Shown here in pieces: positions 444 through 57,840 of a stretch of DNA of 64,000 nt. Position 1 is the stretch's first letter, and each line of letters opens with the position of its first letter. The stretch is from Dictyostelium discoideum. Its lineage: Eukaryota. The translations under genes and the position numbers were made by a program. Under the pieces are notes generated by a model. That model did no database searches. It was given only the letters and a program-made list of their open reading frames with translations, and was not told the DNA's origin. The stretch covers positions 1,312,001 through 1,376,000 of the forward strand of contig CM000152.2 in NCBI GenBank assembly GCA_000004695.1, given 5' to 3'.

Positions 444-485
<42 letters not shown>

Positions 486-664
486 TTAAAAAAATAAAAA
501 ATAAAAAATAAAAAATAAAAAAAAAAATAAAAAATTAATATGGGAAACTTTTCATTTTAAAATCAAAGAAATTTTTTTTTTGGAAAACATTAGATATTTC
601 GATAGTCAAATTTGCCTCACTTTTTAAGATTAGTGTTATGGGTATTTGAAATTTTATTCATTCA

Positions 665-715
<51 letters not shown>

Positions 716-1369
716 GTTTAATTATTTATTTAATTATTTATTTATTTTATTTTATTTTTATTTTATTTTATTTTATTTTTTTTTTTCCCCAAGTTCTTTT
801 TTTAATTATTATTATTATTATTATTATTATTTCATTTTTAAATTAAATATTTTAATAATTTTTTAATATTCATCGAAACTAATAAATTTTTTATACTTAA
901 AATTAAAACAATTGTTTTAGTGGTACCAAAAAAAAAAATCTTTTTTTTTTTTTTTTCAATTGAATTTTTTCATTTTTTCATTTTTATATTTTTTTTTTTA
1001 ATTTTTTTTTTTTTTTCATATATAAAAAGACGAATATAAAAAAAAAAAAAAAAAAAAAAAATAAATAAATAAAATAAAGTAAAATAAAAAATAAGTAGCA
1101 TTAAATCAGACCAAACCATATAACACACACCATGTTATACGGTGTTACAAAAGTTTTTTTATATGTAGAGTCTTTAAGAATTATTGATTTATTAAGAAAA
1201 GGGTAATTGTTAATTTTCTTTTTTTTTTTTTTTTTTTTTTCATTTTTTGTTTAAACAAAAAACAAAAACAAAAACAAAAAAAAAAAAAAAAAAAAACAAT
1301 TCTAATATTAAAATTTAAATTACCAATACAATAGTGTATACAATTTAAAAGTTAAAGTATTTCAAGAGA

Positions 1370-1411
1370 ATGAAACAACCAATATTGCAAAACCAACAAT
1401 CATTCAACAAC
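1370..1411 (+). CDS. FAM135-like putative serine esterase (DUF676), exon 1 (MKQPILQNQQSFNN) ending at a GTAAGT donor
   Basis: ATG followed by GTAAGT at 1412. A 398-nt AT-rich intron carrying an (AAT)n array and a (CT)n tract ends in tttcattAG at 1809. Downstream, the open frame continues in phase with ORF 2071..4635 (2071-1810=261, no stops). Confidence 0.6.
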
Positions 1412-1425
1412 GTAAGTCTAATAAC

Positions 1426-1426
<1 letters not shown>

Positions 1427-1495
<69 letters not shown>
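1427..1495. repeat. (AAT)n microsatellite inside intron 1 of the FAM135-like gene
   Basis: A perfect trinucleotide array seen directly in the sequence. Confidence 0.9.
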
Positions 1496-1496
<1 letters not shown>

Positions 1497-1809
1497 TTTA
1501 GCTACCTATATATTAATATATTTTATTTTAATAATAATAATGATAACAATAATAATAATTTTAGCTAAAACCAATAAAGACTATAGTCACGTTATAAAAG
1601 AACATGAGGTTCTAAATAATAATTGTTATTCATCTAAAAAGTTTTTCGTTCAATATATAAACGAATTCTTTTTATTTGGAAATTTTATATCATTTGAAAT
1701 CGAATTACCTTTATATGTATGTAAAGAAATTTAAATATAAATATATATACATATATAAAGAAAGAAAGAACTAATATATAAATCTCTCTCTCTCTCTCTC
1801 TTTCATTAG

Positions 1810-2404
1810 AATTATTATTCAAATAACTTAATTGTTGATTTCGAATTAATTTATTATCCAGTAGAGGATGATTCAAGTGAGTCAATACCAAACTATAGCA
1901 ATAATACATCATTTTATTCGCAATTAACTGAGACGCAACAATCAACACCAACACCACTACCAACTGAAAAGGTAGTATCACAACAAAGAATTAGAATTAA
2001 TAAAGCAGGTTATGGTATACATCAATATATTCCAATCACTTTTAGCGATTTATACTTTTGTTTATTTAAAATGACAATTTCAACCTCATTAGTTGATGTT
2101 AAATTTAGACATCAATCAATTGAATCTTTAGTAAATTATAATACTGATAATAATAATAAATTTGATTCAAATGATAATGATAATGATACTGAAAATGAAA
2201 ATGAAAATGAAAATGAAAATAATAATAATATTAGTAATTCCCCTTCATCTCCCTATTTAAATGGTGCTGATATTGTAATATCAAAAGATACAACTAATAA
2301 CAATAATAATAATATTAAAAATGCAAATATCAATTTCTCATCATCTTTTTCAGTATTACCATCTATAAATACAAATACAACTACAACAACTACCACATTA
2401 ACTA

Positions 2405-2481
<77 letters not shown>

Positions 2482-4635
2482 TTACCAAGTTATTATAATA
2501 ATTCACCAAAATTATTAAGACAAAAAATTGGTAGATTAAGTTTATCAATGGGTCAAATACATTCATCACCATTGGAAGAGGATTTTTTAAATGATTTCTT
2601 TGATTATAAATATCCAGAAGTATTATCATTCTTTGTTGAATCATATTATAGATTAAGTAATAAATATAAATTATTATTAAACCTCTTAAAACAATCACAA
2701 TTTAATGCATTAGGTGAATCATTTACAACTGTACCACCTTTAAATATACCACCATTTTCTAAAACTCCATTATTTAATCAACAAAATTATAATAATATTA
2801 AAAATAATAATAATAATAATGGTACAACACCACCAAAAAAACAAAGACCCCAAACTGTTTCCATAAATAATATTAATAATAATGATAGTGACAATAATAA
2901 TAATAATGGTGGTAATACATGGAAAATGGGATCATCATCAGATTTATTACCAGCATTAAGAAAAAAAGCATTTTTAAGAAATAGTATTGAATTTGGTAAC
3001 TCTACTGAATTTATAGATAATTTACAATCATCAATGAGTTCATCACCTTCATCACCTCGATCACCCTCTTCACCCTCTTCACCTTCATCACCTTCATCAT
3101 CAACAACCTCATCACCATCAACTTCTTATTCAAATTTAAATACAATAACAAATAATAATAATAATAGTAATAATAATAATTTAAATAATTCACAAAATAG
3201 TATAATATTAAAATGGAAGAATATTTTAAATAATTTTCAAAATTTATCAGAACAGTTGAGTAAATTATGGAATAATTATGTTGTGGTATTTCAAATGGTA
3301 TCAAGAGAATATTGTTTTAGAGCAACAATAAATTATGAAAAGAAATGTATTGATAGATGGGGTTATAGAGTTCAAAGAATTGTACAATATATTCAATCAA
3401 CTGATGATATTTTAACACCAGATTCAAGTGTACCTTCATCAACATTTCTATCAGCTAATCCAACATTTTTCAATTATAAACAATTTAAAATTCAACATAT
3501 TCCATTTAAACATGATTCAGTTTATCATTCAATGCCAATATTTTTTGAACATATTTTAAAAATTCATAAAGATACTTATCCAAATATAACTGAATCATCA
3601 TTAACAAATAATAATAATACTACAAATTCTACAACAACAACAACAACATCAAAAGTAAAAGATGAATTAAATTCAATAACTGAAAATATTAAATTTAATT
3701 TATCAAATTCAAATCAATATTCAAGTAAACATTTATTTGTATTTGTACATGGTTTATCTGGTAGTTCATTTGATTTGAGACAATTTAAGAACTATTTTCA
3801 ATTACATTTTCCAAATTTTTTATTTTTAATGTGTTCATCAATTGAGGAGAATACATTGGAAGATATTGAACAAATGGGTGAAAAGATAGCTCAAGAGTTG
3901 CATGAATATTTACGTGATAATAATTTACTGATGTCAATTGGTAAGATTAGTTTTCTGTGTCATTCATTGGGTGGTTTGGTGGTTAGAAGTGCTTTAACCT
4001 GTAAATCATTATCCCAACATTTACATAAACTACATAGTTATATCTCATTATCAACTCCACATCTTGGTACTAAATTCTTGAGTGGTCCTTCAATTGTGAC
4101 ACCTGCACTTTGGGTTTGGCAAAAGTTTACAAGTTCAACATGTTTAAAACAATTGTTAATGCAAGATGCTCCAAATTTACAAGATTGTTATCTCTATAAG
4201 CTAAGTACTTGTGAATCACTATCTCTATTTCAATATGTATTTTTAATTAGTTCTGAACAAGATGGTTATGTACCTTATCATAGTGCAAGAATTGAAGTTC
4301 CAAAAGATTCAAAAGAAAATAGTAAACATATTCAAGTATTAAGAAAAATGGTTCAAAATTTATTAGATCCAATTAGATTAAGTAGTGGTTCTATTCAGTC
4401 AAATCAACAATCTGATAATAACAATAATATATTTAATGGTTGTGGTAGTTCAAGTTTAACAAATAGAGATCAACAAATTAAATCCCTACCTCGTTTCACT
4501 AAAATTAATGTTTTATTTGAAGCTCATAAAGGTGTTGATGGTGTAATTGGTAGATCTGCTCATATTAGAATGTTAGATCAAACTTGGTTTATGCAAATGA
4601 TTATACAATTATATAAACAATCATTTGAAAATTAA
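1810..4635 (+). CDS. FAM135-like putative serine esterase (DUF676 lipase-like domain), main exon
   Basis: The C-terminal half carries HLFVFVHGLSGSSFDLRQF ... ISFLCHSLGGLVVRSAL, i.e. a GxSxG nucleophile elbow in DUF676/ROG1/FAM135 context. The N-terminal half is low-complexity N/S/T-rich, typical of dictyostelid orthologs. Confidence 0.7.
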
Positions 4636-6426: not shown

Positions 6427-8696
6427 TGATGAAATTGTAGCTTTTTTTTTTTTTTTTTTTTCTGAACATCAGTATTTAGTTTTTTAATATGTATCATTAA
6501 TCTATATTTTTAAAAATACATACAAAAAATTGTCATTTTTTTTTTTTTTTAGTTTTATTTTAGTTTTTAGTTTAATTAAAATTTATAACTTATTGATTTT
6601 TTTTTTTTTTTAAACAATATTTTGAGGCTATTTATACAAAAAGAATAAAAATAAAAATAAAAATAAAAAAAAAAAAAAGAACAAATGAGGTTTCTATATG
6701 TTTTAAATGCCAAAAGTCACAATATCACGTGATACCACTTGTTTAATCTAATAAAATATATTTTATAAAAAGTTAAATGGCATCATTTATTTTTGTATTT
6801 TTAAATTTTCTTCTTTAACCCACTTTTTGATTGTTTTTTTTTTTTTATCTTTTTTTTTATGATATTAATTTGATTGTGAGCAATATTTTATTTTTATTAT
6901 CTCTATTTAAATAGTTCTAAAATTTATTTTTTAAAAACTATTTTTATTTTTTTTTATTTTTTTTATTTTTTATTTTTTATTTTTTCAAAACCAAGATTTT
7001 TTTAAAAAATTTTATATTTTTATTTTTTATATTTTATTTTATTTTATTTAATATTTTTTTTTTTTAACGTAAAATCTAGATTTTAACCTTCCAATATCCT
7101 TTAATAGTATTGTTGACAGATTTTAAATCTTTGGATCAATCTAAAAATTTATAAAATAATATTATTAGAAAATTGCAATATTTATAAAATAGTGTTGGAA
7201 TCAAAGTATTATTATAGTTTACCTTTGCATTAAGTCCAAATTACCATGTAAAATTATAGTTATTGTCGACAATCAGTTTGTTTAATTTAAAAATATTATT
7301 ATTAAGTGAAAGCTGTTCTACCAATTAGCAAAGCCTGAGAATTGAAAGATTTATTATAAAAAAAAATTAAATCCTTTGATTCTCAGACATTGAATTAGTA
7401 CCGAGCAATACTAAATAAACTACCACTTAATAAAACTATCTTTTTTTCTAAAAATAAAAAACTATTGTATTGACATTTAACTACACCTGTTGGTAGTTTT
7501 ATTTCTTTTTGGACAATTTAAAGACAAAAAGAAATTTTACATTATGACTAATAATTAGAAAGAGAATGGTAGGTTATTTATTTGTATTATATATTTGAAA
7601 ATAATCAAATTAAAAAATAAAAATAAGAAAATAAATATTAAAATTACCTTTAAATATTTTCTGTCCAGAACTATAATTTTTTTTTTTTTTTTTAAATTTA
7701 ATAATTGTAACTTTGTTTTTTCTAAAATGTAAAATTTCTTTGTTTTTTTTTGAAATTATATCTTTATTAATTTTATTTTTTTTTTTTAAAAATAATTAAT
7801 AATTTTTTGTCTTTTTATACTAAAAAATTTTGATTGAAATTTTTTTTTTTATTTTTAATACTTTTTTGGATCCACCAAATTTAGTAAACCCAAAAAGAGT
7901 TACATTTTTTGATCTTGATTTCCAAAAAAAAAAAATTATACTTTTTACTTTTTTTATTTCCCAATAAAATTACTTTTTTTTTTTTTTTTATCAAAATAGA
8001 AATTGATTTAGATTGATTAATTTATTTTTTTTATATTTTTTTTAATTTTTATTTAATTTTCTATTGAATTTTATTTTTAAAAATAATAAAAAATAAAAAA
8101 TAAAAAATAAAAAATAAAAAATAAATACTTTCAAAACCAATGAGTTATAGCTTTAAAAAAAAAAAAAAAAACCCTTTTTAGATTTTTTATTTAAATTTAA
8201 AATTATTGAGATAAATATGATTCATCGAATATGTCATATTTTACACAAATATTTAAAGCATCTGCTATTTCATAAATAGGTTTCACAAGTTGTTGTCTAA
8301 TTAGTATAATAATAATAAGTTGAATTACAAGATTCATATATTAATAAAAATAGATTTTTTTTATATAAAATATATTCCCTATTTTCAAAATAAAAAAATA
8401 ACTATAAAAAATGAATGATAAATAATTAAATTCTAAAAATAATTTTTGATTAAAAAAAAAAAATAAAAGAATAGTGATATTCATTTTATTTCATTTTTTA
8501 AATGATTTTGTTTATTTTTGAGTGTTCTATTTTTCTATAATAAATTTATATTAAAAATAAAATAAATAAAATTAATTCATTGTTGAAAAAAAAAAAAAAA
8601 AAAAAAAAAGGAAAATTAATTTTAATTTTTATTTTTTTTATTTTTTTATTTTTAATTTTTTTTTAGGTAAAAAAAAAAAAAAAGAAAGATTATAAA

Positions 8697-16092: not shown

Positions 16093-19000
16093 GATCAAAA
16101 ATGACAGTAAAACCAAATCAAATATTAGGAGCATTTATTAATATACTATGTATTGAAGGATCACTTGAAGTTCCAGTAGGTGTTTTTCCATTTTTTATTG
16201 GTGCATTAGTAATATTACCAGGTGGAAATTTTAAGAGTGAAAGTTCATTTAGATTTATGAATTTAGTAAATTCAAAGATTGATCCACTTAATTTTTTCCC
16301 TGGAATATTGACATTGGGTGGATCACTTTCAATTTTAGGACCAAAATCAATTAAATATTCAGCAAATCGTTTAGGTGATTTTCAATTTCAATTATTAGAA
16401 TTAATTGATCCAAATTCATTCAATAGTGATTATAAAGCAAATATTTATAGTGAATCATTTGTCACAGGTCAACAATGTGATTTCGTGTCAATTACTAATG
16501 GTTACACTCTAACAGTTGGTGGTTGTCAAGGAGTACCATCAACTGATGTAAATATTTATATTTTCTTTGCAACTGTTGATTATGATTGCACATTCATTGA
16601 TTCTGATTCAGAGGTACCTGCATCAATCTATATCAGTGGTGATACAAATGTACATATTGAGAATTTCTTTTTAAATTCGTTAGGTAAAACTACCAATGCC
16701 AATTACAACGATACCATATTGATTTTCTCACCAACTGATGACACAAATGTAACTGATATTATCATTGGAACCAATCAAAGATATAGAAATTCATTATTTG
16801 TAGAGTTTTCAAATAATGTCACATTGAGGAATAATTTCATTAGAGAGTCAATTGAGTCTAGATCACCATTGATGTTTTTTGCATCGAGTCCAATCTTGGA
16901 GGGAAATTTAGTTGTTAGTAATTCCGGGTCAAGTGTAATCGCTCAATTTGGTACTGAATTCATTCAATCAACTAATAATAGTTATTTTTTAGAACCACCA
17001 ACTCAACCTGTAATTCCAAATGATAACAATATGGATTATGGTACAGAAGGGAATGGCATCTACTCTCTCTCACCAATAGTTTCATTTACAACTGATGTAT
17101 TTGTCGGTCAATTAATTTCAATCAATTTCAATTTTATTGCAAATAGATCATTAGTAACTGGTTTCAATTATGATTGTTTTGCACCATGTTATCCAGGTTC
17201 ACCAATCATATCAAATCTAGTTCAACATTCTGTTGATTTTAATATTATTAAACCAACATTTTCATATTCTCATGGTAACACTACCAGCAGCACCACCACC
17301 AGCAGCACCACCACCAATACCAATTCTCATTTTCTTTTAAATGTTAATGATAATGGTAATGAACCAAGTTCATATTATTCATTCAATCAATTATCAATAG
17401 CAAGTGAAGCAATTAAAGTAAATTTACCAATTGGTACATTGGGTATTGGTAATTTATTTGCAACAAATAATTTTAAAATTGATGGTGCACTTGAAAGATT
17501 AGATATTTTAAATTCAATATTTAATTTACCACCACCAATTTCAAATAATTTCTCACAAAGTGGTATTTTATTATCAACAACAACTTCAATGTTAAATTCA
17601 TATGTTTTCGTTTCAATTGGTTCAGAACCAACAAGAATTGAATCTCAAATTTATGGATCAACAATTACACCTTATTATTATAATAATATTGAAACACTTG
17701 ATCTATTTCAAATTCAATCAATTTTTCCATCTGTACAATATCAAATTATTAAAAATTCAACCATTAATATAACTATTAATATCACCACCACCACCACCAC
17801 CACCACCACACCCACCACCAACAATGTAGTTTGTTCATTTACATCAATTGTGAATCAACAATCATCAGTAACAAATGAAATTTCAATCAATGAAACTTTA
17901 ATTCAAATGGATCCAATCCTTAACAATTGTGTTTTTCCTTTATCAATTGATCAAGAAGGTTCTTTAAAATTACGTGTAACTATAAAAAATCAAAATTCAA
18001 CTTTAGAAAATCAATATTATTATATAATTGATTTCCCTGAAATTACAATTTTTCAAAGTTTTCAATTTTATACTGGTATAAAATTTATTGATGTTCAATC
18101 ATCCTCCTCTTCATCACAACAAACTTCTTCTTTTTCACCTACAACTACAACATTTCTAAATTTATTATCAACAACAGAAAATTCAAATGGGTTTCTAAAT
18201 GGTTGTCAAATTAGTAATCAATGTACATTATCAAATAATGTTAAATATGTTTCATCATTACCAAATGTAACCAATTCACCAGATTTTCAATTATTTCAAA
18301 GTGGTATAACTCCAATAATACCATATGATCCAGTGGTTATAAATTTAGGAATTGAAAAAAATAAAACATTTCAATTTCAATTATTTTTTACCTTTTATCA
18401 ACCAATCGATCAATATTCAAGTCCATTATCAATCTTTATTCAAAGTGAACCATATTTGTTATTGGATCCTTTAATTGATGCACCAAACTTTAAAAATTTC
18501 ACATTTTTCTATGATAATCTTAATCAAGATTCAATTGAAATTTCATTTATCTCAAGAGGTGATATTTATTTAACTTCAATGGCTATTTATTCTTTAGATC
18601 TTGTATCATATGAAAGTAGTGATAGTAGTAGTAGTAGTAGTAATAGTAGTAGTAGTACTGGCAATGGTATTGGTGATATTGTAAATAATGAGGATAATCA
18701 TAAAAAATTAGTAATTGCATTATCAGTTTCAATTCCAGTTGCAGCATTATTAGTAATTTTATGTTTTGGTATTTTCATTTGTTACAATAATAATAAAAAG
18801 AATAAAAATGAAACCAAAGGAAAAGATATTGAAACTAATACTGATAAAAAAGATGATGAAAATGAAAATGAAAATTGTAAATTTCAATTCAAAGATGAAT
18901 TTTTAACAAATCCAAATGAAATTAATATTCAATTAAAAAAATTAATGATTAATAAATCATCAACATTACCACCACAATCAACAATTTCAATTGATACATC

Positions 19001-19579
19001 ACCATCATCTGAAAATACTACTTTCACTGAATCATTAACACCAAAGAAATCTGCAACTGTTAATGGTGAAATTGATTTTAGTAGAAATAGTACAAATGAA
19101 AGTACTGTTTCTAATTCTTCTTCTGAAAATAATAGTGATAATAACAACAATAATAATAATAAATGTAAAAAAGAAAAACTATCATCATTCCCAACAATAC
19201 CAGGTACAAATCTTACAAATATTCCATTAAATTTAGTTGGTAGAAAATCAAGAAATCCAGAAGATAAATATAGAACCAATAATGATATTTTAGTTTGTCT
19301 TCAAGAATCTCATTATTTTAAACCTGATGATCCATCAATACCAATAGAATTTAGTGAATCAGTTTTAGATTTTGGTAGAGGTTCAAAATGTTTAATCGAT
19401 GAAACTTACATTTATACAATCTCTGTTAAAAATAAATCAACTACTGATTATAATATTTTATTAATTTTACCTATTGATAATAATACTGGTACAATTTCAA
19501 CTGATACCCAATATTTTCAAATTAATGCTGGTGAAAGTAAACCAATTAGTTTTTCAATTAGTTTAAATTGTACAACAAA

Positions 19580-19580
<1 letters not shown>
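16093..19580 (+). CDS. Receptor-like TKL kinase, exon 3: G8-like/beta-helix ectodomain, Thr-rich linkers, TM helix and juxtamembrane region
   Basis: Acceptor tttttaaAG at 16091-92. The ectodomain is paralogous to the minus-strand secreted gene (KPNQILGAFINILCIEGSLEVPVG ~ KGRLILNPTFNSKLVCQKVIIFPGG; DPLNFFPGILTLGGSLSILG ~ DPLKTSSFISLGGSVTLRG). The TM is LVIALSVSIPVAALLVILCFGIFICY. The exon ends at ACAACAAAG|GTAAAT. Confidence 0.8.
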
Positions 19581-19616
<36 letters not shown>

Positions 19617-19645
19617 TTATTATTTATTTAAATTTTTACTAACAT

Positions 19646-19677
<32 letters not shown>

Positions 19678-19685
19678 ATTATTAG

Positions 19686-20654
19686 TATTTTGAAAAAATT
19701 GGAGTTTCAATTGAAGAATTAAATTATCATACATTTATTTGTGTACATATGGAATCAGAATTATCAACAAGATTAGATTTTTCAGAATTAGATTTTGATG
19801 AAATTTGTGGTCAAGGTACTTATGGAATGGTTTATAAAGGAAAATGGAGATCACAAGTTGTAGCAATTAAAATGATGAGAGTTGGCACTGTAAATTGTGA
19901 TGAAGTTTATAGAGAAATGGATATTATGGGTAAAATTCGTCATCAAAATGTTATCTCTTTTATTGGTTGTGTTGTATCATTAGAGCATCTTTGTATAGTT
20001 ACAGAGTTTTCACCAATTGGTTCATTGGGTGATTTAATTCATGGTGATAATAATCAAAAGAAATCCAACACCAACACCATCACCAACACCATCACCAACA
20101 CTAACACCAACACCAACACCAGTACTAGTACCAGTACCAAGCTAACTGTAAAACAAAAACTTAGAATTGCAATTGATATTGCTCGTGGTTGTCAATTCCT
20201 TCATCAGTGTGGTATTATTCATCGTGATTTGAAACCCGATAATGTATTAGTATTCGATATCAATCATAATGCTCCAGTTTGTGCAAAGATCTCTGATTTT
20301 GGAACTTCAAAGGAAACTAATGAATTCAGTAACAAGAATACCAATTGTGTTGGAACACCAATCTATATGAGTAATGAAATCTTGGAGAAAAAGACCTACG
20401 ATAATTCTACCGATGTTTACTCATTCGCTGTACTTTTCTATGAAATGATGATTGAAGAAGTACCTTTCTCTGAAATCGATGAAAAATGGGAAATACCAAG
20501 TAAAGTTATAAGTGGTTGGAGACCTACTAAAGGTTTAAATTCTTTAGATAGAGATATTAAAAACTTAATTAATATATGTTGGGCTCCTCATTCATTACCA
20601 TCTTTTGATGAAATCGTTTTCTCTCTTGTAAAAATATTTAAAAGATTTAATTAA
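19686..20654 (+). CDS. Receptor-like TKL kinase, exon 4: protein kinase catalytic domain
   Basis: A 105-nt intron (GTAAAT...(AT)n...TACTAAC...ttattattAG) separates this exon from exon 3. Exon 4 is in the same frame as ORF 19749..20654. Kinase motifs are GQGTYG, VAIK, HRDLKPDN and DFG. Confidence 0.8.
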   Translation, partial: YFEKIGVSIEELNYHTFICVHMESELSTRLDFSELDFDEICGQGTYGMVYKGKWRSQVVAIKMMRVGTVNCDEVYREMDIMGKIRHQNVISFIGCVVSLEHLCIVTEFSPIGSLGDLIHGDNNQKKSNTNTITNTITNTNTNTNTSTSTSTKLTVKQKLRIAIDIARGCQFLHQCGIIHRDLKPDNVLVFDINHNAPVCAKISDFGTSKETNEFSNKNTNCVGTPIYMSNEILEKKTYDNSTDVYSFAVLFYEMMIEEVPFSEIDEKWEIPSKVISGWRPTKGLNSLDRDIKNLINICWAPHSLPSFDEIVFSLVKIFKRFN

Positions 20655-26635: not shown

Positions 26636-27661
26636 TTAGAAAAGACCACCAATACCACCAGAAAGTTCTTGTTGTTCTTTAACAAAGGTTTCAAAGTATT
26701 GATAGATGATAGTGACAGCTAATAAAATACCAGTACCAGAACCGATGGCACCCATGAAATCGGCGACGACAGTGAGAGCACCAATACAGAGACCACCAAA
26801 AGCGGCAGCGGTTGGAATATAACGATTGAGTTCCTTGATGACAGAGGTATCACGATGACCTTTCATGGTCATTTGTTGATCTTTGAGTTGCTTAGCAACG
26901 TCACGAGCAGAGGAACCACTAACTTCGATCCAAACTTTGGAGAAGAGAGCACAACTTGTCAACATAAAGGTGATGTAAAAGAGGGCATGGAATGGATCGG
27001 CCAAAACAGCGCTCATATTATTTGGGGAGCTGATGTAATAGGTGAGACCAGAGACTGGAATCATTTGTTGTGAATATTCACTGGTTCTCCAAGCACCAAA
27101 TAAGTTTACCAAAATGTTATCTGGGAAACGACGATACAATAATTGAGAGATGAAATAAAGATTGCTAACGAGTGCACTTTGAAGAATGATTGGAATATTT
27201 GAAGTGTAGAATAACTTGATTGGATAGGTACCTTGTTGACCACTTACACGAGTTGATTTAACTGGAAGATCGACACGGAAACCTTGGAAATAAATTACAA
27301 CCATAAAAATTAACACGGTAGCCAATAAATTGGTAATGTTTGGTAAGTTTTGTCTATAGAATGCTTCTTTGAGTGCTCTAACCTTATCGTTACGAGTTAA
27401 TAACAAATGGAATAATGCAATCACTGCACCTTCAAATTCGGTACCTTTACCAACGGATACTGTAGTTGGTGAAAATGTCTTCCATACAATGGTCTCACAA
27501 ATATTGGTTGCAATAAATAATGAAATACCTGATCCAATACCATATCCTTTTTGTAAAAGTTCATCCAAAAGCATAACAATAATACCTGCAAAGAATAATT
27601 GTAAAACAATTAAAAAGCAGTTACCAAATCCTAAAACTGCTGGATCACCATATGAACCACT
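26636..27661 (-). CDS. sec61a: Sec61 alpha translocon subunit, exon 3 (TM4-TM10, C-terminus)
   Basis: [61 protein letters not shown]... is about 80% identical to human SEC61A1. Acceptor taatAG at 27663-62; phase 0. Confidence 0.9.
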
Positions 27662-34297: not shown

Positions 34298-35200
34298 TTA
34301 AAGTTTATTTTTAATTGATTGATTTAAAACTGTAATATCAACAAAATGCCAACAATTATTCATTACACCTCTAAGATTCCAAATATCTTTAACATCTTTT
34401 GGTTGAGTATTTGAAGCAGAATCCCAAGCACGACAAACCAATCTAATTTTTTGATGATCTTTATTTTGTAATTGTGGTAATTGTGTAATGGTATATTTAA
34501 AGAGTACCCAACTCCAATATTTATTACAAACACCTTTATCTTCACCCATTAGCTCGGCATAATCCCAAGTTTCACCACCATCTAAACTAATGTCAACTCT
34601 TTCAACTTTTCTACCACCACCACTAGTTGCGTAACCAGTGATGGTGAATGGAAGATAAAGTGTAGAGTTTGGTGCAGGTATACAAATTGCACTTTGGATT
34701 GACAATTCTTGTAATGATGGTGTTTTATCCCAATACTTTTCGACATTATTCCAATCTACACCATTATGAAATATTTTATAATCCCTACGTTGAAAGAAGC
34801 TTTCACTCTCTTGAGATGACACTGTCACTTTATCCAACCATTTAACACTTCTTGCTCCAATGATACCTGGTGCTATAACTCTTAATGGGTAGCCGTGATC
34901 TCTTGGTAACGGTTCGCCATTCATTTCGTAAGCTAAAAGTACATCACCATCTAAATCCATAGCTTTCTCCATTGTAATTGAACTACCATATGGTTTACCA
35001 TTATCTTCTGGACAACCAAAATCCAATCCCCAAAATACTGCATGTAATGCACCCTCTGTCTTTGTAAATACTTTTGCATATTCTAATATATCCTTTAATC
35101 TACATCCACTCCATGATGCTGTTGATAAACTTGCAATACCCCAACCAACTCCTCTAACTTTTTTATATTCACTCATCATTGTTCTTCTATTACCTGCACA
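34298..35200 (-). CDS. Sulfite oxidase-like molybdopterin oxidoreductase, exon 2 (Moco-binding end plus dimerisation domain)
   Basis: CAGNRRTMMSEYKKVRGVGWGIASLSTASWSGCRLKDIL... matches the SUOX Moco domain with its Cys ligand (CAGNRR). A 72-nt intron precedes it. Confidence 0.85.
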   Translation of the reverse strand, partial: CAGNRRTMMSEYKKVRGVGWGIASLSTASWSGCRLKDILEYAKVFTKTEGALHAVFWGLDFGCPEDNGKPYGSSITMEKAMDLDGDVLLAYEMNGEPLPRDHGYPLRVIAPGIIGARSVKWLDKVTVSSQESESFFQRRDYKIFHNGVDWNNVEKYWDKTPSLQELSIQSAICIPAPNSTLYLPFTITGYATSGGGRKVERVDISLDGGETWDYAELMGEDKGVCNKYWSWVLFKYTITQLPQLQNKDHQKIRLVCRAWDSASNTQPKDVKDIWNLRGVMNNCWHFVDITVLNQSIKNKL

Positions 35201-35272
35201 CTTTTTTTTTTTTTTAAAAATAATTAATAAATATTCAATTTTTTAATAATAATAGTAATAAAATATACTTAC

Positions 35273-35566
35273 TTGAATTGAAGCATTAATTGTAACTTTT
35301 TCAAATTTATTTTTGATATCAGATAATGATAAAATTAATGGATTACCAACTAAACCATCTACTTTTAATGCATATGATTCACCATTAATATCTGGTACAG
35401 GTGCATGATTTCTCACATAAAATTTCTCTGTTGGTGTAATAAATTGTTGAACTAATACATCTTGTCTTGGTTCTGCATTAAATGGTGCTTTAAAATTAAT
35501 TGTAAAATCTGGATCTCTATATGGCTCATTTGCAAAAGATACATTTTGGTTATTATTATGTTGCAT
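35273..35566 (-). CDS. Sulfite oxidase-like, exon 1 (no cytochrome b5/heme domain, plant-type)
   Basis: MQHNN...FNAEPRQDVLVQQFITPTEKFYVRNHAPVPDI...YALKVDGLVGNPLILSLSDIKNKFEKVTINASIQ then GTAAGT. Total length is 398 aa. Confidence 0.85.
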
Positions 35567-36298: not shown

Positions 36299-37246
36299 CT
36301 ATTCCCACCAATCCTTAGTAATTGGAATATAACCTTGTTTAATTTTATCAGAAACAAATTCTTCCAAAGTTTTATAAGAAACAGTTGTTGTTGGTGATTG
36401 ACCACTTAAAGAAGTTGAGTTTCTTGTGGGAACGGTAGTACTAGCTTCATTGAATTTAAGTTCTTGATTTAAATTGTTTACACTTGAAGAACGAGAAATT
36501 GTAGGAGAAGTTGTACTACTATTAGTTGGCGATATATTGGAACCTCCACTACTACCACTACTATTTAAACTTGATGCTAAAAGTTCATTTAAATTTTGTG
36601 ATGAACCACTTTTTGGTATATTATTACTTGAATTTGAACTTGAACTACTACTACTACTACTACTGCTACTAACCCTTCTTGGTGGTAAATTTTCAACATG
36701 ATAGCCATGAGAAGATGATTTAATGATTGAATGTAATATTTTTCTATGAGGATCGGATAAATAAGAGAATACAAATGAACCTGGTCTACTATTAGAATTT
36801 CTAATGATGAAACCACCAGCAGGTGCACCAGAAAGTAGAGATGCAACACCTTGAGTTTCAAGTGTTTGAAAGAACCATCTCTTTTCAAATACACCGGCCT
36901 CTTTTAACTTCATTTTTGCTTTTTTCTCTAATTCATGAGCGATATCAGTACCAGGTCTAATGGCAGCCCAACCTCTTAAAGCTTCAGCCCAATTAAAGAG
37001 AGCATAATGATGATTTCTTTTAAGTTTTACAGCAAGTTGAAACTTTTCAATTGCAGACTGATATAATTTTTCAATTTCAGCTTTACCATGTGCTTTGATA
37101 TATGTTTTATTTGAAATTAATCTTGCACGCATTGATAATAAAATTCCCCAATGTGTAAGTATTTCATAATCATCTGGTTTTGATTGAATTGCTACTTTAA
37201 ATTTCTCTGCTGCTTGTATAAATAAATTATCTGCAGAATTTGTTAA

Positions 37247-37306
<60 letters not shown>

Positions 37307-37775
37307 ATTATCATCACTTCCATCATTTGATCCGTCAGGATTATTATTATTATTATTAATATTATTTGAAGTATTATTTGAAGTTGAAGTAGTAGTTGAA
37401 GTATTTGTTGGTTGTTGTGGTTGTGGTTGTGGTTGTTGTTGTTGTTGTTGTTGTTTTGATAATGAAATTGCTTGATGAAATAAACTTACACCTTGTTGAT
37501 AAGGAATGGAGTGAAGAAATTTAACTTTTGGTGTAATAGAAATGATATCATCAGGTTGTATGGATTCACTTTGATCACCCAATTTTTTATATAAACCATC
37601 TCTAAATACAATACCCATCATTTGTGAAATTCTATACAATAACAATTCCAAAGAAAATCCATCTAAATCACAACTTTGTAATAATGAAATACACATCATT
37701 CTATTTAAAAATTTACAAATATCCGGTAAATTAATATTATAATTTATATTATTGTTATTATTCGGATTATTATCA

Positions 37776-37830
<55 letters not shown>

Positions 37831-38873
37831 CTATACTATTATTATTATTATTATTATTTATTAATGGTAATGATCTTAAAAAACTTCTTAATCTATTTTT
37901 AATTTTTCTAGCTATAATTTCAGTATTTATAATTGTTGACAAACGTTGGTCAATTGCATGAAAATCAGTTTTTTTTAAACGTTGTAAATAACGAACGTTT
38001 ATACCTTCACGATGCATACTATCGATTAACATTAGATTTTGAGAAAGTTCCATAATATTTTTACATTTTGTTTTCTTTACTTTTTGATTCATTAATAATA
38101 CAAAACTTGGAATGATATGATTGAGTAAACGTTTTTGTGATCTTTCAACCTCTTCATTGTTTTTATCTCTATCGGGACCAGCAAACTTTGTAAAGGCATC
38201 AGAGGATAGGGGCATCTTTGAACTTCGTACCAATTCGGGTCTAAGAAGTGTATAAAGATGTGAACCTGTTTTACCGGGTATTGGCTTCTCTGGTGGGAAA
38301 ACTCTAGCTGTATCGATTACAACGAAATGATTATCCTTTGTGATATGTCCTTCAATATCGCATGGCCCATATAGAAATGTTTTATTATCGCTCTGACCAG
38401 TATAATGACCTTTTAAATTCAATATTTCACCGGCTTTTCTCATTTTGTCTTCCATCTCTTCGCTTTTATTATAAACTGTTTCACCACCATCATTGGATCC
38501 ATACACCAATGTTTTATCACCATCGATATTAAGTTGAGATGTTGCAATTAATCTATAACCCATATAATCGATCAATGTCATCAATGGTAAAAACAAACCA
38601 TCGATTTGACAATTGAAATATCCCATTAACCCTTTTAATTCATGACCTGCTGACTTCATTGCAAATGCATCGCCACCATAAATACCATAACAATCTACTG
38701 CAAACTTAAAAAATATACCACTCTTTAAATATTTTAATCCACCTGCAACTCCACCTGCATCATATGATGGTATTGTCCATCCACTTGATAATCCTTTCTC
38801 TTGAATAATAGTTACACCATGTTTTGTTGCAACATTTACAAATTCTTCTGCAATTGCTTGAATTTTTTGACTT
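36299..38873 (-). CDS. Clu-domain / TPR / C-terminal SH2 protein, exon 2
   Basis: The CLU central domain IFFKFAVDCYGIYGGDAFAMKSAGHELKGLMGYFNCQIDGLFLPLMTLIDYMGYRLIATSQ...TLVYGSNDGGETV...DIEGHITKDNHFVVIDTARVFPPE aligns with human CLUH IFFSLGFDVRDHYKDFGGD...[20 protein letters not shown]...SVIYGSIDFGKTV...[22 protein letters not shown]. TPR-like helices follow (AIEKFQLAVKLKRNHHYALFNWAEALRGWA). The C-terminus holds an SH2 (WFFQTLETQGVASLLSGAPAGGFIIRNSNSRPGSFVFSYL). The frame continues upstream of the track start to an acceptor near 38874-80. Confidence 0.75.
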
Positions 38874-39013
38874 CTTTTTCTTTATTATCATTATTAAAAA
38901 TAAAATAAAATAAAATAATTAATAAATTTTAAATCTAAAAACTTTTTTTTTTTTTTTTTTTTATAGTTTTTTTCAAATTCTGTGTAAATTTTTCAATTTA
39001 TTGTTGTACATAC

Positions 39014-40374
39014 AAATTTTCATTACCACAATTATGATCCATTTGTAAAGCATTCCAAAAATCTAATGACCAATTTCTAATTGGTTCAGTTGGTTTTTCA
39101 ATCTCTTCCTTTTTAAATAAACTACCTAAACCATTTGAATTATTAATCTTTGTTTTCAACGCTTCTAAATCTCCAATTGATAATTTTTCAAAATGTAAAT
39201 CACCACTACTATCACTCATATTACCTAAACTATTAATTGCTTTTTCTTTTAAATTTGTTGTAGTTGTTGTTGTAGTTGTTGTTGTTGTTGTCGATTCATT
39301 ATTATCGTTATAATTATCATTATCGCTATCACTATCATCTTCATTTGGATTATAATCATCTTCGACATATAGTGGAGATGGAGCTGATCCCATATTTAAA
39401 CTTGACCTATTATTATTAATACCTCTACTACTACTATTTTTATTTTGTAAACTATTATTAGGATTATTAGAATTATTATGAATAAAAGATGGTAATGGTG
39501 GTGAATTACCAATTTGAAAATTTGATAAGTTTGGTAATAAAGTATTTTGAGAAGATTTTAAACCTTCTATCTCTAAAATATTTTTATCCTTTGAAATACT
39601 AACTGGTGCACTTGATGATCTATCTCTGCTATTTCCAATTATATTTATATTTTTATTTATTGATATTGATGATTTTGATGTTGATGTTGTAGTATTTGTT
39701 GTTGTTGTTGTGGTGGTGGTTGTAGTGGTGGTTGTAGTTGTCGAGGCTTTATCTACATTACCATATAATGATTGTTGTTGTTGTTGAGAATTTACTTTAC
39801 CATCTCCACCACCATTAAAGTTATAATATACAGCCTGATTAAATTTTGGAATTGAAACAGGATTATAATGATCTACCCTATTAATTGGTCCCATTGGTAC
39901 CAATACTGGATTACTACATGATATTTCAAATAAATCTGATGCAATTAGAGGTGATTTCTTTAATTTATCAATATAAATAAAAACTTCATTTATTGAAACT
40001 TTGTTATTATTATTATTATTATTTGTTGTAGAAGTGGTGGTGGTAGTGGATGATTTCGAAGATCTTCTTGTTGATGGTGAGGAGGTTGGTGTTGGTGTTG
40101 ATGGGGAAGAGGATGATGACGAAGATGATGATGATGATGATGAATCTGGAGATGTTGCTTTTTTCTTTAAAAAAATTAATAAAATAACATATTTGATAAA
40201 GTTTTCTGAATCATCAGGGTTCTCTTCAAACCTTTTGTGGAGATCTGGTAATGATAATAATAATTCATTTATATCTGTATTTGTTCCCATTTTATTTGGT
40301 GATATTGTTAATTCAATACCACCACCTATCCCTTTTTTACTTTTATTATTTTCATTAACAATTGATGTTGTCAT
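39014..40374 (-). CDS. Clu-domain/TPR/SH2 protein, exon 1 (S/T/N-rich N-terminal region)
   Basis: ATG at 40374. The ORF ends ...CGNENL at the donor TT|GTATGT (39013-08), phase 2. Splicing to exon 2 skips the TAA at 38998 and joins in frame, giving ...NENL|SQKIQAIAEEFVN. Confidence 0.55.
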
Positions 40375-49339: not shown

Positions 49340-49776
49340 TTATTTATTTAATTCTAAAACTAAATTTTCTGCAATTTTTTTAACGATTTCAGATTCATCT
49401 TGTTTAGAGATTTCATTTAAAATTTGATATAGTGAGTTTGTTTGTTCTTTATCTACAAGTAATAATGATGGTGATTGTACAATGGAGGCAGTGATTTTTA
49501 ATAAAGTAATTTTTGAAACGGGAGAACTATCTACTCTAAGACACTCTACCAAAGAATTTACTAATCCCTCATTGATGAGAGATTTTAACAATTGTTGTGA
49601 ACCATTTATAAGGTTAAAAAGTGGTATAATTGATTTTTGAAATGATGGATGTTTAATATGGTTAATATTTAAAATACCAATCAATCTTAATGGTATATTA
49701 TGATTTTCAAATGATGTTGATGATGATGATGTTGGTAATTGTAATGATGATGATGATGTTGATGTTGATGTTGATA

Positions 49777-49809
<33 letters not shown>

Positions 49810-51959
49810 GTGATGATTTTGATGTTGATGTTGATGTTGATGTCGATGTTAAAGGAGATATTGTACCACCACTATTTAATTTTTCAAAAACTAATTTAGA
49901 TTCTAAAGTTGCCCAAGTTGAAATTGATTCTATTGCATCAGCAAACCAATTTCTATCCTCAATTAAATCCAATAGTTTATCGATGGTATTACATTTCCAA
50001 AGTAGGGATCTATTATTACAAGATCTAACCAAATCGAATAGTATCGGTAAGGCCAATTCTTTTAATGGACCTCTTTCTTCGATGATAGTTAGCAATGGTT
50101 CAAGTATTGATGATTTCAATGCTTTCTCTTGTCTACTTCTATCCAATAATAATAAATAATAAAGTGAATGTAATGCTTGATTATGAATCTCTGTAATCTT
50201 ATCGATACCACCATGTTTCTTCAAATAGTTTATCAATGGTGGGATTACACCAGCATCATCTAATCTTGAACGAACATTTGGATCCATTGATAGATTCTTT
50301 ATAACTTTTAATATTTTCAATAGGAATGATCTAATATTATTACCAATGGTTTTCCATGTATAAATTTCATCCAATACATTTACAATATATTTAATAACAT
50401 TGGATTGACTCATCTCTTCCTTTACCAATGAATCACCTGTTGAAAAAAATAATAAAATATCTGCCGCTTTCACACTATATGCTAAAACTTTATCAAATTG
50501 ATCTTTACTTAAATTCTTTACACTTGATGATTTAGATAATACTGGAAATTTTAAATTTGGTGATGATGATGATGGTAATAATTGTTGTTGTTGTTGTTGT
50601 TGTTGTTGCTGTTGTAATAATAATTGTTGTTGTTGTTGAATTTGTTTTTGTTGAAATTGTTGAGATTTACTTGTTGCAGATTTATCGCTTGAATTAAAAA
50701 TTTGATTTAAAAGGTAAGAAATTCTATACATTAATGCAGTTTTTGCAAATAAATGACATAATGCAGTTTTTGGTGAAGCTGTATTCATTTTAAAAATTAA
50801 AGAGATTGCATCCAATGAATTATGAATTAATGTGAAGCCATTGAAATAATCACTATCTAATAGATCTACTAATACTTTACAACCACGACTACCCGTAATG
50901 AACATATTTAAACTATAGGTTGAATAGCTACATAGTTGTAATACGAATTTTGATACTTCCTCTCTAATGAGTTCATCAAATTGTTTGGTTGCCAATTTAG
51001 TTATGATTGAAATACCATTCATTAAACAAATAGTCTCTTGAATATCTTTCTCCTTTATAATGGATTGGTTCAATAGTTTTAATAGATTGATTACCAATTC
51101 AACATTTGAAAAGTCTTCACTAAACGTATCGGAGTTGTTATTATGATGATAGGTTGTCGTTATGACATCGCTTGGCGTATCACTATTACAACAGCAATTG
51201 TCCTCTAAAATCTCTAGAATCGTAATGATGGGTAGTCTAAAATAAACACCACCTTCACCATTACTAATTAATAATTTACGTTCATCTGGATAGGTTTGAA
51301 AAAGGTCTGTTAACTTTTGACAAGTATCAATTAAAACATCATTTGGTTGATTTGGTTTCAATTGTAATATAAATTCAACAATGGTTTTAACAACTTGTTC
51401 TCTATATTTATCTTGAATATTAATTGTACGTTGATTATCTGCTTCTGACCATGATATTGTATCAAACGATTCTTCAAATTCTGTATCCCATTCTTCTGAA
51501 GTTTCTTTAACTTTTAATTTCATTTCTGATGGCGATAATGGTTGTTGTAAATGTTGTTGTTGTTGTTGTTGTTGTTGTTGTAGAAGTAATTGTTGTTGTT
51601 GTTGTTTAAGTTGACCACTACTACTATATCTAATGATTCTATTTGATGGTAGTATTTTCTTTGCAATATTTGAATTTATTGCTGCATTTGTTGTTGCTGT
51701 TGAAGATTCAGATTCATCACCACTTGAACCGAAATTATCAAATTCATCATCCCAATCTTTCTTTTGATTTCTAACTTTAAATCTACTTGTATCGCTAACT
51801 TTTTGATCAAATACTAAATCAGTTTCATCATCTTCGTTATCCTTTTCAGTGAATTTATTAAATTTTAATAATTTTAATTTATGACTATTACTACTATTAA
51901 TACTATTACTATTACTATTATTATTACTATTATTACTACTATTATTATTATTACTATTA

Positions 51960-52021
<62 letters not shown>

Positions 52022-53379
52022 GCTATTGCTATTGCTAATATTATTATTAGCATTAAAACTTTGTTGGCGTTGTAATTGAATTGGTGGTTTATGACTAAGT
52101 ATTGGTTGTAATTTTTGTAAACATATTGTTGAATTTGGTAATACTATATTATCAAATTCATCATCACTTTCTTTCTCTGAGAATTTTCTTAAATGTAAAT
52201 TTATTTTCTCTTTTTCTTGATTCAATTGTTCTTGTGATTTCATCATTGGTGATAATGGTGTAGTTGGAATTGGTGGTGGTGTTGATATAGCTGAAACAAC
52301 TGGTGATGTTACATTTGATCCTGTATTTGTAGAACTTGGTGTAGTAGTAGTAGTAGTATTAGTGGCTGCATTAGTAGTGGTAGTAGTTGTTGTTGTTGTT
52401 GTTGTTGTTGCAGCGGCAGCAATTATATTTGGTTGTATTGATTGTTTTTGACCAGCCGATAATTTACGTGGAGAAGCAATTTGAACATGTTGACCACTAC
52501 CATTATTAATTTTATTTAATGATGATTTATCAATTGAATTTACTGTTTGACTAATTTTATTTGATGGTACAGCTGACCATGATGAATTTAATGTTGGTGA
52601 AGCTTTATTTTGATTAACTGTTGATGTACTTGTTGCTGGTATTGGTAATAATGATGATGATAATGATGGTGATGTTAATTTATTATTATTATTATTAGTG
52701 GTACTACTATTATTTTTAGTAGTAGTTGAAGAAATATTTGGACTATTATTAGTGGCACTACTATTATTATTATTATTATTATTATCATTTGATGAAGAAA
52801 TATTCATATTTGTTAATGGTGGTACTAATTGAGAAGGTGATGGTGGTTGAACTACAGCAGAAGAACGTGGTCTAGTGATGTTACTATTATTATCTTGAAT
52901 GATATCTTGTAATTGAGCATTATAGGAAAGAATTTCTTGACGGGCATTTTTTGGAGCTTGAGTTTCAGGATTCCTAATTTGTACTGATTTCACCCAAGGA
53001 TGATGTAAAAGTTGTTTTGCGGAACTACGTATATTCTCATCCTTTTTGAAGCAATTTAATAGGAAATCTTTTAATGCCGCTGAAATTCCTGGTGGTATTG
53101 GTGGATGATCCTCTTGAACTATCTTATATAATGCAGCAGCTGGTGCTAATCCAAAATAGGGTGGTGTTCCTGTCAATAATTCAATGATTGTACAACCTAA
53201 ACTCCAAACATCACATGCTGTTGATATACCTTGCATTTGAATAACCTCTGGGGCCATCCAATATGGTGTACCTGCAAATGTATCATCTGGATTATCTGAA
53301 CTTAAATCTGAAACTTTTGTTGCTACACCAAAATCTGCTAATTTAATTGAACCATCTGTACTAATTAATAAATTTGCAG
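49340..53379 (-). CDS. sepA: Cdc7(S.pombe)/Cdc15-family STE-group Ser/Thr kinase (septase-like), exon 4: kinase subdomains VII-XI plus ~1250-aa C-terminal region
   Basis: [23 protein letters not shown]...[40 protein letters not shown]...[14 protein letters not shown]...[28 protein letters not shown] is near-colinear with S. pombe Cdc7. The long tail carries polyQ/N/T tracts and helical ARM-like repeats. The sepA symbol is my inference. Confidence 0.8.
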
Positions 53380-53486
53380 CTAAATAATAATAATAATAAT
53401 AATGAATAATATAAAATATAAAAAACAATGTTAACATATTTGAATTATAATCCATTGTCATCTCCTATCTCTCTCTTCTCTCTCAC

Positions 53487-53684: not shown

Positions 53685-53796
<112 letters not shown>

Positions 53797-53804
53797 AAAC
53801 TTAC

Positions 53805-56427: not shown

Positions 56428-56852
56428 ATGAGTGAAAAAGAAGAGTATAAAAATAATAATAATAATAATAATAATAATAAACAAATTGATAAGCAAAATA
56501 AAATACCAATAAAGGGTTATCATATTTCAGCTAAATTAACATACTTTAAATTATTGGAAGATTATTATTTTAGTAAAAGAAATGATTGGATCAAAGTAAA
56601 TGCACTTACAGCACCAATTGGTGAAGATTTTCAATCAACTATTGATTTATGTAACCAATATTCTAATGAAAATAATAATAATGATAATGATAATATTGAT
56701 AAATCAAAAATACCATTACTATATACAAATTTATCAATTGAACATAATGAAAAAACAATGGCTATAAGAGGACCTTATTTTTTAGATCATTCATCAATTG
56801 AATCATCAATTGAATCATCAATTGAATCATCATCATCATCATCATCATCATT

Positions 56853-56948
<96 letters not shown>

Positions 56949-57840
56949 TAATAAATTAGCTAGAATTATTAATAATAACTCAATAATTAGAAATGCAATT
57001 CCAAATTATCAAATTTTAACAGATAAATATTTATTATATAAACATTTATTTAATAGTAAATCAAAATATCAAGTACCAACATATTTTATAAATAGAGGTA
57101 AATTTGAAAATAAATTAGAAATTAATGATAATGATAATAATGATAGAGTTATTTGGTATTTAAAAGATCCATTATTAAATAAATCTCAAGGTATTAAATT
57201 ATTTAAATCAATTGAAAATGTATTAGAGTTTATTGAAATTAATGAAAATAAAAATAGCAGATATTTATTACAAAAAGAAATTCATCCAAAATTATTAAAT
57301 GGTATATTTAAATTTGATATTAGAATTTTCCTTGTTATAACATTTACACCAAACCATACATTAGTTTATATATTTAAAGAAGGTATTGTCAGATCAACAA
57401 ATTCACCCTACAAAAAAGGTGACATAACTAGAGATTCACAATTAACAAACTTTTGTTATCAACTTGAAATTAATCCTGATTTTCAAAATATTTTACCACT
57501 TTCCCAATTTGAAAAAAATAATAATAATAATAATAATAATGAAAATAATAATAATGAAAATAATAACAATGAAAATAATAATAATAATAAAATATTTAAT
57601 AAACTTAAAAATGCAACAAAGAATATATTTTCATCATTATTAAATATATTAAATAATCAAGCAAGTGGTGATAAAATAAGTGGTTGGTCATTATTTGGTC
57701 TAGATTTTATTTTAGATGAAAATGAAAATCCATTCCTTTTGGAAATTAATATTTCACCCTCAACTTTTCAAAAATCACCAAATGATGTTTCTTCAATTTG
57801 TCAAAATTTGATTAAACAAGTACCAATAATTACTTTTTGA
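56428..57840 (+). CDS. Tubulin-tyrosine ligase-like (TTL/TTLL family) protein with a ~45-residue poly-Ser insert
   Basis: The TTL ATP-grasp signatures are KFDIRIFLVITFTPNHTLVYIFKEGIVR and WSLFGLDFILDENENPFLLEINISPS. Confidence 0.75.

Follow-up and report, generated by a model that had tools for sequence, protein, structure and literature searches.

The minus strand of a 64,000-nucleotide stretch of the Dictyostelium discoideum genome (contig CM000152.2, positions 1,312,001 to 1,376,000; hereafter the window, whose own coordinates are used throughout) carries at 36299..40374 a gene combining a CLU (clustered-mitochondria) domain, a TPR-like helical module and a C-terminal SH2 domain. We are highly confident that this is D. 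discoideum cldA (DDB_G0278895) or its exact counterpart, a single two-exon gene for a 145-kDa cytosolic scaffold. According to its open reading frames (ORFs) and the splice model, the complete coding region extends from the ATG at 40374 to the stop codon at 36301..36299. Without the stop codon it measures 4073 bp counted from the ATG, and the computed product has 1313 amino acids and a mass of 145.2 kDa. Sugden et al. (2010, J Biol Chem 285:22927; PMC2906285) described Clu-domain protein A (CldA, formerly ChaA) as a protein of 145 kDa that combines Clu, TPRs and SH2, and the CldA-CTAP construct covered genomic positions 298-4073, ending immediately before the stop codon (PMC2906285). Comparison with published CldA revealed no detectable difference: the order of Clu, TPR and SH2, the 4073 bp, the 145 kDa and the simple-sequence tracts are all the same. 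Since the gene contains several long homopolymer tracts of variable length, the base-exact agreement at 4073 bp is strong evidence for cldA itself.

A first-pass annotation of the window, made from the sequence alone, had singled out the CLU-TPR-SH2 architecture as unusual. The architecture is real but already known, having been published as CldA (PMC2906285). The same annotation had summarized the SH2 proteins of Dictyostelium as STATs, Shk kinases and adaptors, a list that omits CldA, one of the 13 that have been catalogued (PMC2906285). CldA has no catalytic domain, so it is probably a scaffold. Two points weigh against our reading of the gene, namely that the gene was identified as cldA by its length, mass, architecture and place among its relatives, and that the splice-junction model is derived from sequence comparison.

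The SH2 domain

The SH2 domain was located with Pfam (PF00017), AlphaFold2 (AF2) and Foldseek at 36317..36877 on the minus strand, corresponding to amino acids 1122-1308. Pfam hidden Markov models recovered both this domain (E=6.4e-7) and the CLU domain, as the first-pass annotation had anticipated. The SH2 match has 29.8 bits (gathering score 21) and, owing to an insert of 100 amino acids, is limited to profile positions 1-59 of 77; the SH2 domains of orthologues scored up to 37 bits, reaching profile positions 1-74. The first part of the domain, helix alphaA through strand betaF (36877..36680), passes through WFFQTLETQGVASLL, a central FIIRNSNSRPGSFVFSY segment, KILHSIIKSS and GYHVENLPP and ends at betaF, and the domain resumes past the loop with YKTLEEFVSDKIKQGYIPI, which holds helix alphaB and strand betaG (36376..36317). 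The FLVRES-type motif FIIRNS lies at 36811..36794, and the codon of its phosphotyrosine-binding-type Arg (betaB5, R1147) at 36802..36800. The annotation had placed a conserved Arg here in a C-terminal SH2 domain, and we found it to be invariant in nine sequences from Dictyostelia, Archamoebae and a metagenome. Likewise, the motif F-[IFV]-[IV]-R-x-S-x-x-R-P-G is invariant from Dictyostelia to Archamoebae, and the SH2 core is ~100% identical in five dictyostelids with an overall identity of 65-71%.

A phmmer search of the C-terminal 315 amino acids against the PDB returned the SH2 domains of SHP2, p120RasGAP and Crk at ~1e-4. A first AF2 model based on a five-sequence alignment gave the SH2 domain a predicted local distance difference test score (pLDDT) of 40-55 and had no Foldseek match below 1e-3, and modelling was redone with nine sequences. 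In the nine-sequence model the SH2 core (pLDDT 77-86) and alphaB (83) are predicted to form an alpha-beta-alpha sandwich fold, with the loop below 50. One of the top Foldseek matches was the N-SH2 domain of p120RasGAP (root-mean-square deviation (rmsd) 1.5 Å over 63 columns, 32% identity, probability 1.00, E=7e-4). The SH2 domains of SHP2 were also among the top matches (probability 1.00), and the rmsd for RasGAP and SHP2 ranged over 1.5-2 Å; the E-values stay modest since the TPR module and the disordered loop are part of the model too. A chance SH2-like motif was considered as well and rejected.

The insert separating betaF from alphaB (36380..36679, minus strand) is an S/T/N-rich disordered segment of ~100 amino acids with pLDDT <50. 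It includes a conserved block, KFNEASTTVPTRNSTSLSGQ, at 36457..36398, for which the dictyostelid consensus is KFNE(A/S)xTTxPTRNxTSLSxQ. The insert ranges from ~40 to 100 amino acids in dictyostelids, with ~40 in Synstelium and ~100 in D. discoideum. Compared with SH2 adaptors (LrrB; metazoan Grb2, Crk, SHP2 and RasGAP), CldA shares the SH2 fold and the betaB5 Arg, and is closest to SHP2, p120RasGAP and Crk, but it has the disordered betaF-alphaB insert and lacks the alphaA2 Arg. The N-SH2 domain of SHP2 likewise lacks an alphaA2 Arg.

It could be argued that the CldA SH2 domain is a degenerate relic without phosphotyrosine binding, a structural or other protein-binding module, and that CldA is purely a phosphotyrosine-bearing ligand of LrrB. 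The Pfam match stops at profile position 59, the domain is interrupted by 100 amino acids, Thr replaces the alphaA2 Arg in a manual alignment to the SHP2 N-SH2 domain, and the literature ascribes phosphotyrosine dependence to the SH2 domain of LrrB, not to that of CldA (PMC2906285). We nevertheless regard this alternative as unlikely. The betaB5 Arg and its surrounding motif have stayed invariant from Dictyostelia to Archamoebae, and the core is almost unchanged among dictyostelids that differ considerably elsewhere. Furthermore, alphaB and betaG are kept past the insert, in the AF2 model the domain closes up as a normal SH2 fold, and the archamoebal orthologues have an uninterrupted SH2 domain, with Mastigamoeba showing a shorter stretch of its own. 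On the basis of the invariant betaB5 Arg, the conserved core and the predicted fold, we thus infer that the CldA SH2 domain is a putative phosphotyrosine reader.

Orthologues and distribution of the architecture

Full-length orthologues were found in D. purpureum (P0001, 1172 amino acids), the closest database relative with 71% identity, and in Polysphondylium violaceum (P0002, 1197 amino acids), and two EukProt models (P0003, and P0004 from Synstelium polycarpum) start near the CLU domain. All four carry CLU, eIF3_p135 and SH2 in Pfam, which answers the question raised by the first-pass annotation of whether other dictyostelids keep the SH2 domain. In a search with the whole protein, low-complexity words dominated (6 matches left of 8000 candidates), and an exon-2 profile was used instead. 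This profile retrieved 5515 CLU-type proteins from 1.84 billion representatives. Among the 150 best-scoring of them, six match the profile as far as its SH2 part, comprising the dictyostelid clusters and four others, from Mastigella eilhardi (P0007), Mastigamoeba balamuthi (P0008), Pelomyxa schiedti (P0009) and an ENA metagenome (P0010). CLU, eIF3_p135 and SH2 were detected by Pfam in all four of these non-dictyostelid proteins. Strand betaF runs directly into alphaB in those of Mastigella, Pelomyxa and the metagenome, and the one from Mastigamoeba has its own, shorter S/T/Q-rich low-complexity stretch. Because the conserved insert block is absent from all four, the SH2 insert of the D. discoideum type looks dictyostelid-specific. 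Since SH2-bearing CLU proteins occur in Archamoebae, the CLU-TPR-SH2 fusion appears to predate the split between Dictyostelia and Archamoebae.

A literature search for the CLU-SH2 architecture outside Dictyostelium, or for later work on CldA, returned nothing beyond two papers of the Williams laboratory (PMC2906285, PMC3085826). CLU/TPR is not known as an SH2 fusion partner among metazoan SH2 proteins (PMC2906285). The genes flanking cldA are unlike those of the D. purpureum and P. violaceum loci, so synteny was not informative. We also observed that two proteins, Pelomyxa schiedti KAH3755977.1 and Tieghemostelium lacteum KYR00520.1, carry the NCBI name 'Histidine kinase A'. At E<=0.01 Pfam found CLU, eIF3_p135 and SH2 in the former and CLU, eIF3_p135 and LRR in the latter, with no histidine-kinase domain in either, and the names look like an annotation carry-over error.

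The gene might also be the cldA orthologue of a closely related strain or sibling species instead of the AX4/Ax2 gene itself. In keeping with this, neither the 1311- nor the 1313-amino-acid sequence (the products of two possible splice acceptors) had an exact match in the protein collection, and the homologue search returned no D. discoideum entry. We consider it very unlikely, however, given that the 4073 bp agree exactly with the coordinate published for the construct despite the variable homopolymer tracts, that the mass is 145 kDa, and that the orthologue of D. purpureum is already 141 residues shorter.

Gene structure and splice model

The window is strongly AT-rich, with a GC content of ~10% in intergenic and ~30% in coding sequence, and homopolymer codon tracts are present. 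The two minus-strand ORFs reported by the first-pass annotation exist as described: 40374..38998 encodes 458 amino acids and is ended by the stop codon 39000..38998, and 38659..36299 encodes 786 amino acids counted from its first Met, its frame being open upstream to 38881. In our model, exon 1 (39014..40374) encodes amino acids 1-453 and contributes 2 nt to the codon of Leu454, and exon 2 (36299..38879) supplies the third base of Leu454, amino acids 455-1313 and the stop codon. Between them lies a phase-2 GTATGT...AG intron of 134 nt (38880..39013), inside the Leu454 codon. Most of exon 1 encodes S/T/N-rich low-complexity sequence, although it also includes the beginning of the CLU domain, and alignment with D. 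purpureum and P. violaceum pointed to two conserved blocks at 40275..40186 and 39984..39823.

The GTATGT donor directly follows 39014, and two in-frame AG acceptors lie past an A/T-rich tract, so that exon 2 could start from 38879, giving 1313 amino acids, or 6 nt downstream from 38873, giving 1311. The first-pass annotation had chosen the acceptor at 38874/38873, whereas the orthologue alignment and introns favour 38880/38879, a correction of 6 nt. Specifically, a phase-2 intron interrupts the same Leu codon in the genomic loci of D. purpureum and P. violaceum, with the junction '...GAA AGT TT|GTAAGT...AG|A A(A/T)A AGA AGT CAA...', and the D. discoideum acceptor homologous to theirs is the AG at 38881-38880. 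The dictyostelid alignment over the junction reads ...HNCG(N/T)E(N/S)L(K/I)RSQ..., in which R, S and Q are invariant. The 38873 acceptor would drop K455 and R456, the latter of which is kept in 9/9 aligned sequences (five dictyostelid and four archamoebal or metagenome). Exon 2 thus most likely starts from 38879, reading ...NENL|KRSQKIQ..., and the protein would have 1313 amino acids. A single-intron model failed for the D. purpureum orthologue, which has a second intron within the CLU motif LIDYM|GYRLIA, without counterpart in D. discoideum and P. violaceum; its introns lie at 7278..7345 and 7664..7740 of its genomic locus (L001).

That the two ORFs belong to one gene of about 1300 amino acids, as the annotation had proposed, was borne out by two observations in particular. 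The CLU match starts in exon 1 at amino acid 434 and continues unbroken into exon 2, which on its own argues for one gene, and the orthologous proteins are collinear with both exons over the junction. It is highly improbable that the ORFs are instead two independent genes, one for an N-terminal low-complexity protein and one for a CLU-TPR-SH2 protein whose translation begins at an internal Met, even though the first ORF is closed by its own stop codon and the Met at 38659 opens the second. The exon 2 frame is open upstream as far as the acceptor, the corresponding parts are also joined in the gene models of D. purpureum and P. violaceum, through an intron that shares codon and phase with the D. 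discoideum one, and the metagenome gene P0010, which has no intron, encodes this region in one piece. Moreover, only the joined model agrees with the published values of 145 kDa for the protein and 4073 bp for the gene.

The CLU core and the TPR-like module

The CLU domain (PF13236) lies at 38288..39075 on the minus strand (amino acids 434-651) and spans the intron. On the spliced protein it matched with E=2.2e-54 and 185 bits (cut-off 24) over amino acids 434-649 and profile positions 1-222 of 225. The CLU motif blocks quoted by the first-pass annotation are all present in the sequence, as is FIIRNS: LIDYMGYRLIATS at 38575..38537, LVYGSNDGGETV at 38509..38474 and GHITKDNHFVVIDTARVFPPE at 38350..38288. 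The CLU domain is followed by a partial CLU-central domain (eIF3_p135, PF12807) at 37778..38029 on the minus strand (amino acids 738-821), which matched with E=6.3e-8 over profile positions 10-97 of 171, that is, 88 positions or about half of the profile. The E-values of the CLU, CLU-central and SH2 matches all lie well outside the range of chance. According to the alignment with orthologues, a poly-Asn insert after the CLU-central region is specific to the D. discoideum gene.

The TPR-like module occupies 36884..37243 on the minus strand (amino acids 1000-1119) and consists of six predicted helices forming two extended TPR-like units of the plant-Tom20 type (pLDDT about 85-95). Its TPR character is visible at the level of the family profile and the fold, but not from the D. 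discoideum sequence alone. On the one hand, no Pfam TPR model matched the whole CldA protein at E<=1, and the best TPR-type E-values for the isolated module of 120 amino acids were 0.018-0.07 (TOM20_plant 0.018), falling short of every curated cut-off. On the other hand, the nine-sequence family profile matched the designed consensus TPR CTPR (3e-4), the OGT TPR (9e-4) and plant Tom20-3 (1zu2; 9e-4) in the PDB, and scans of the individual members detected TPR_11 in seven of the nine (best 4e-6) and TOM20_plant (PF06552) in six (best 8e-5). In both AF2 models 1zu2 was the best non-SH2 fold match of Foldseek, with a target-normalised TM-score of 0.57-0.60. Two further proteins, P0131 and P0141, matched the TPR part of the CldA profile repeatedly and have TOM20_plant at E=4e-34 and 1e-32, respectively; hhalign of the nine-sequence TPR profile against P0131 gave a probability of 99.2%, E=2.4e-19 and 40% identity. 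The same profile found no match in the TPR_12 region of the CluA-type protein P0006 (hhalign probability 0.3%).

This evidence from the family profile, its members, the fold and hhalign supports the description of these helices as TPR-like in the first-pass annotation, although their predicted type is a two-repeat, plant-Tom20 one and not the canonical Clu TPR. Sugden et al. drew the TPRs of CldA as positionally equivalent to those of CluA (PMC2906285). With the plant Tom20 TPR (PF06552; 1zu2) CldA has in common the two-unit extended TPR-like helical module, but in CldA this module lies within a large cytosolic protein and has no transmembrane anchor, and presequence binding by it would be speculative.

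Canonical Clu proteins (Dictyostelium CluA, yeast Clu1/TIF31, Drosophila Clueless and human CLUH) share with CldA the CLU domain and part of CLU-central, followed by helical repeats. CldA differs from them in having an additional SH2 domain and in the absence of two other elements: CLU_N (PF15044) did not match the spliced protein at E<=1, and neither TPR_12 nor TPR_10 (kinesin-light-chain type) matched the spliced protein or the isolated TPR module in Pfam. In P0006, by comparison, CLU_N and TPR_12 are both present and the eIF3_p135 match is full; its identity to CldA is 25%. Given the lack of CLU_N and TPR_12, the half CLU-central match and the 25% identity, comparison at the sequence level classifies CldA as a CLU-domain paralogue and not a Clu orthologue. 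That the gene is a canonical Clu/CLUH/TIF31 mitochondrial-clustering orthologue with an extra domain, as the Clu-like order of CLU, eIF3_p135 and TPR-like helices might suggest, has a negligible probability in view of these differences, of the mismatch between the TPRs of P0006 and CldA, and of the separate cluA gene in Dictyostelium (PMC2906285, PMC3085826). CldB (DDB_G0276091) and the amoebozoan Clu paralogues share the CLU and CLU-central core with CldA. The paralogues score ~300-360 bits against the CldA profile and have other C-terminal modules (LRR, VHP) in place of SH2, examples being D. purpureum DICPUDRAFT_152393 (LRR and villin headpiece) and T. lacteum KYR00520.1 (LRR).

Neighbouring genes in the window

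The downstream neighbour of cldA, at 34298..35566 on the minus strand, is sulfite-oxidase-like, with Oxidored_molyb and Mo-co_dimer domains, and lies in two ORFs split by a probable GTAAGT...AG intron near 35272..35202. Further away, at 16101..20654 on the plus strand, an ORF of 1176 amino acids without Pfam match is followed by one of 301 amino acids with a TKL-type protein kinase domain. Between these ORFs lies a GTAAAT...TAG stretch with abundant (TA)n and poly-T, which makes a single gene probable. Another gene combines kinase and ARM-like parts (ORF 53461..49340, minus strand). Its kinase N-lobe is on an upstream exon at about 53800..53690, ending in ...YIVME|GTAAGT, and its intron holds a long (CAT)n repeat of ~40 units. 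We also identified a DUF676 putative serine esterase (2071..4635, plus strand), the C-terminal part of a SecY/Sec61-alpha homologue (26636..27574, minus strand) and a tubulin-tyrosine-ligase family protein (56428..57840, plus strand). For these last three, neither a functional link to cldA nor synteny with the loci of D. purpureum or P. violaceum was seen.

CldA in phosphotyrosine signalling

The published function of CldA is tied to LrrB, a protein with an SH2 domain, LRRs and a 14-3-3 site that pulls down CldA and CldB (PMC2906285). This association requires the SH2 Arg of LrrB and rises strongly upon pervanadate treatment, and the interaction between CldA and LrrB was borne out by reciprocal co-immunoprecipitation (PMC2906285). 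CldB is a second Clu-domain protein in the same LrrB complex, without an SH2 domain (PMC2906285). In the cldA- mutant, the growth-phase genes cinB, ttdA and abcG10 are under-expressed as in lrrB-, but more weakly (PMC2906285), and the mutant shows partial mound arrest with normal phototaxis, unlike lrrB- (PMC3085826).

Within the low-complexity sequence encoded by exon 1, we found a conserved acidic Tyr motif, LYVEDDYNPNE (39340..39372, minus strand), containing Y336 and Y341. D. purpureum and P. violaceum keep it as LYV[ED]DxYxP, and Mastigella as YVDD. Judged from this conservation, the YV[ED]D motif at Y336 is plausibly the best candidate for the site read by LrrB, with Y336 and Y341 as candidate phosphotyrosines. 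Taking the CldA SH2 domain as a phosphotyrosine reader, CldA would have a dual role, showing phosphotyrosine to LrrB and docking through its own SH2 domain onto another phosphotyrosine protein, which would result in a small SH2-SH2 network. The CLU/central/TPR core would then provide the effector or scaffolding activity, possibly of a ribonucleoprotein-like kind as in CLUH and Clueless. Both of these bind ribosomes as well as mRNAs and keep mitochondria from clustering (PMC4210445, PMC4823986). Two considerations run counter to this picture: the phosphotyrosine read by LrrB could be on CldB and not on CldA (PMC2906285), and lrrB- cells show no mitochondrial clustering (PMC2906285). An RNA-binding or mitochondrial role of CldA would be speculative.

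More broadly, proteins of the CldA type might constitute an ancient module, phosphotyrosine-gated relatives of the CLUH/Clueless ribonucleoproteins. We regard this as a doubtful proposal with a speculative mechanism, in which tyrosine-phosphorylated partners, the LrrB/CldB complex among them, would be bound by the SH2 domain, bringing in the CLU/TPR core. The core would in turn act on specific mRNAs at the post-transcriptional level or, via the Tom20-type TPR groove, on presequence-like peptides.

As a discovery the present gene has little value, given that the CLU-TPR-SH2 protein was named, knocked out and placed in a phosphotyrosine-dependent complex with LrrB and CldB in 2010-2011. What our analysis adds is incremental: the orthologues in Archamoebae, the Tom20-type TPR, the dictyostelid SH2 insert with its conserved motif, and the candidate YV[ED]D phosphotyrosine site. 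CldA belongs to the small number of SH2 proteins outside metazoans for which genetic data exist, and if CldA-type proteins were indeed phosphotyrosine-gated ribonucleoproteins, this would account for the narrow gene-expression defects of the cldA- and lrrB- mutants.

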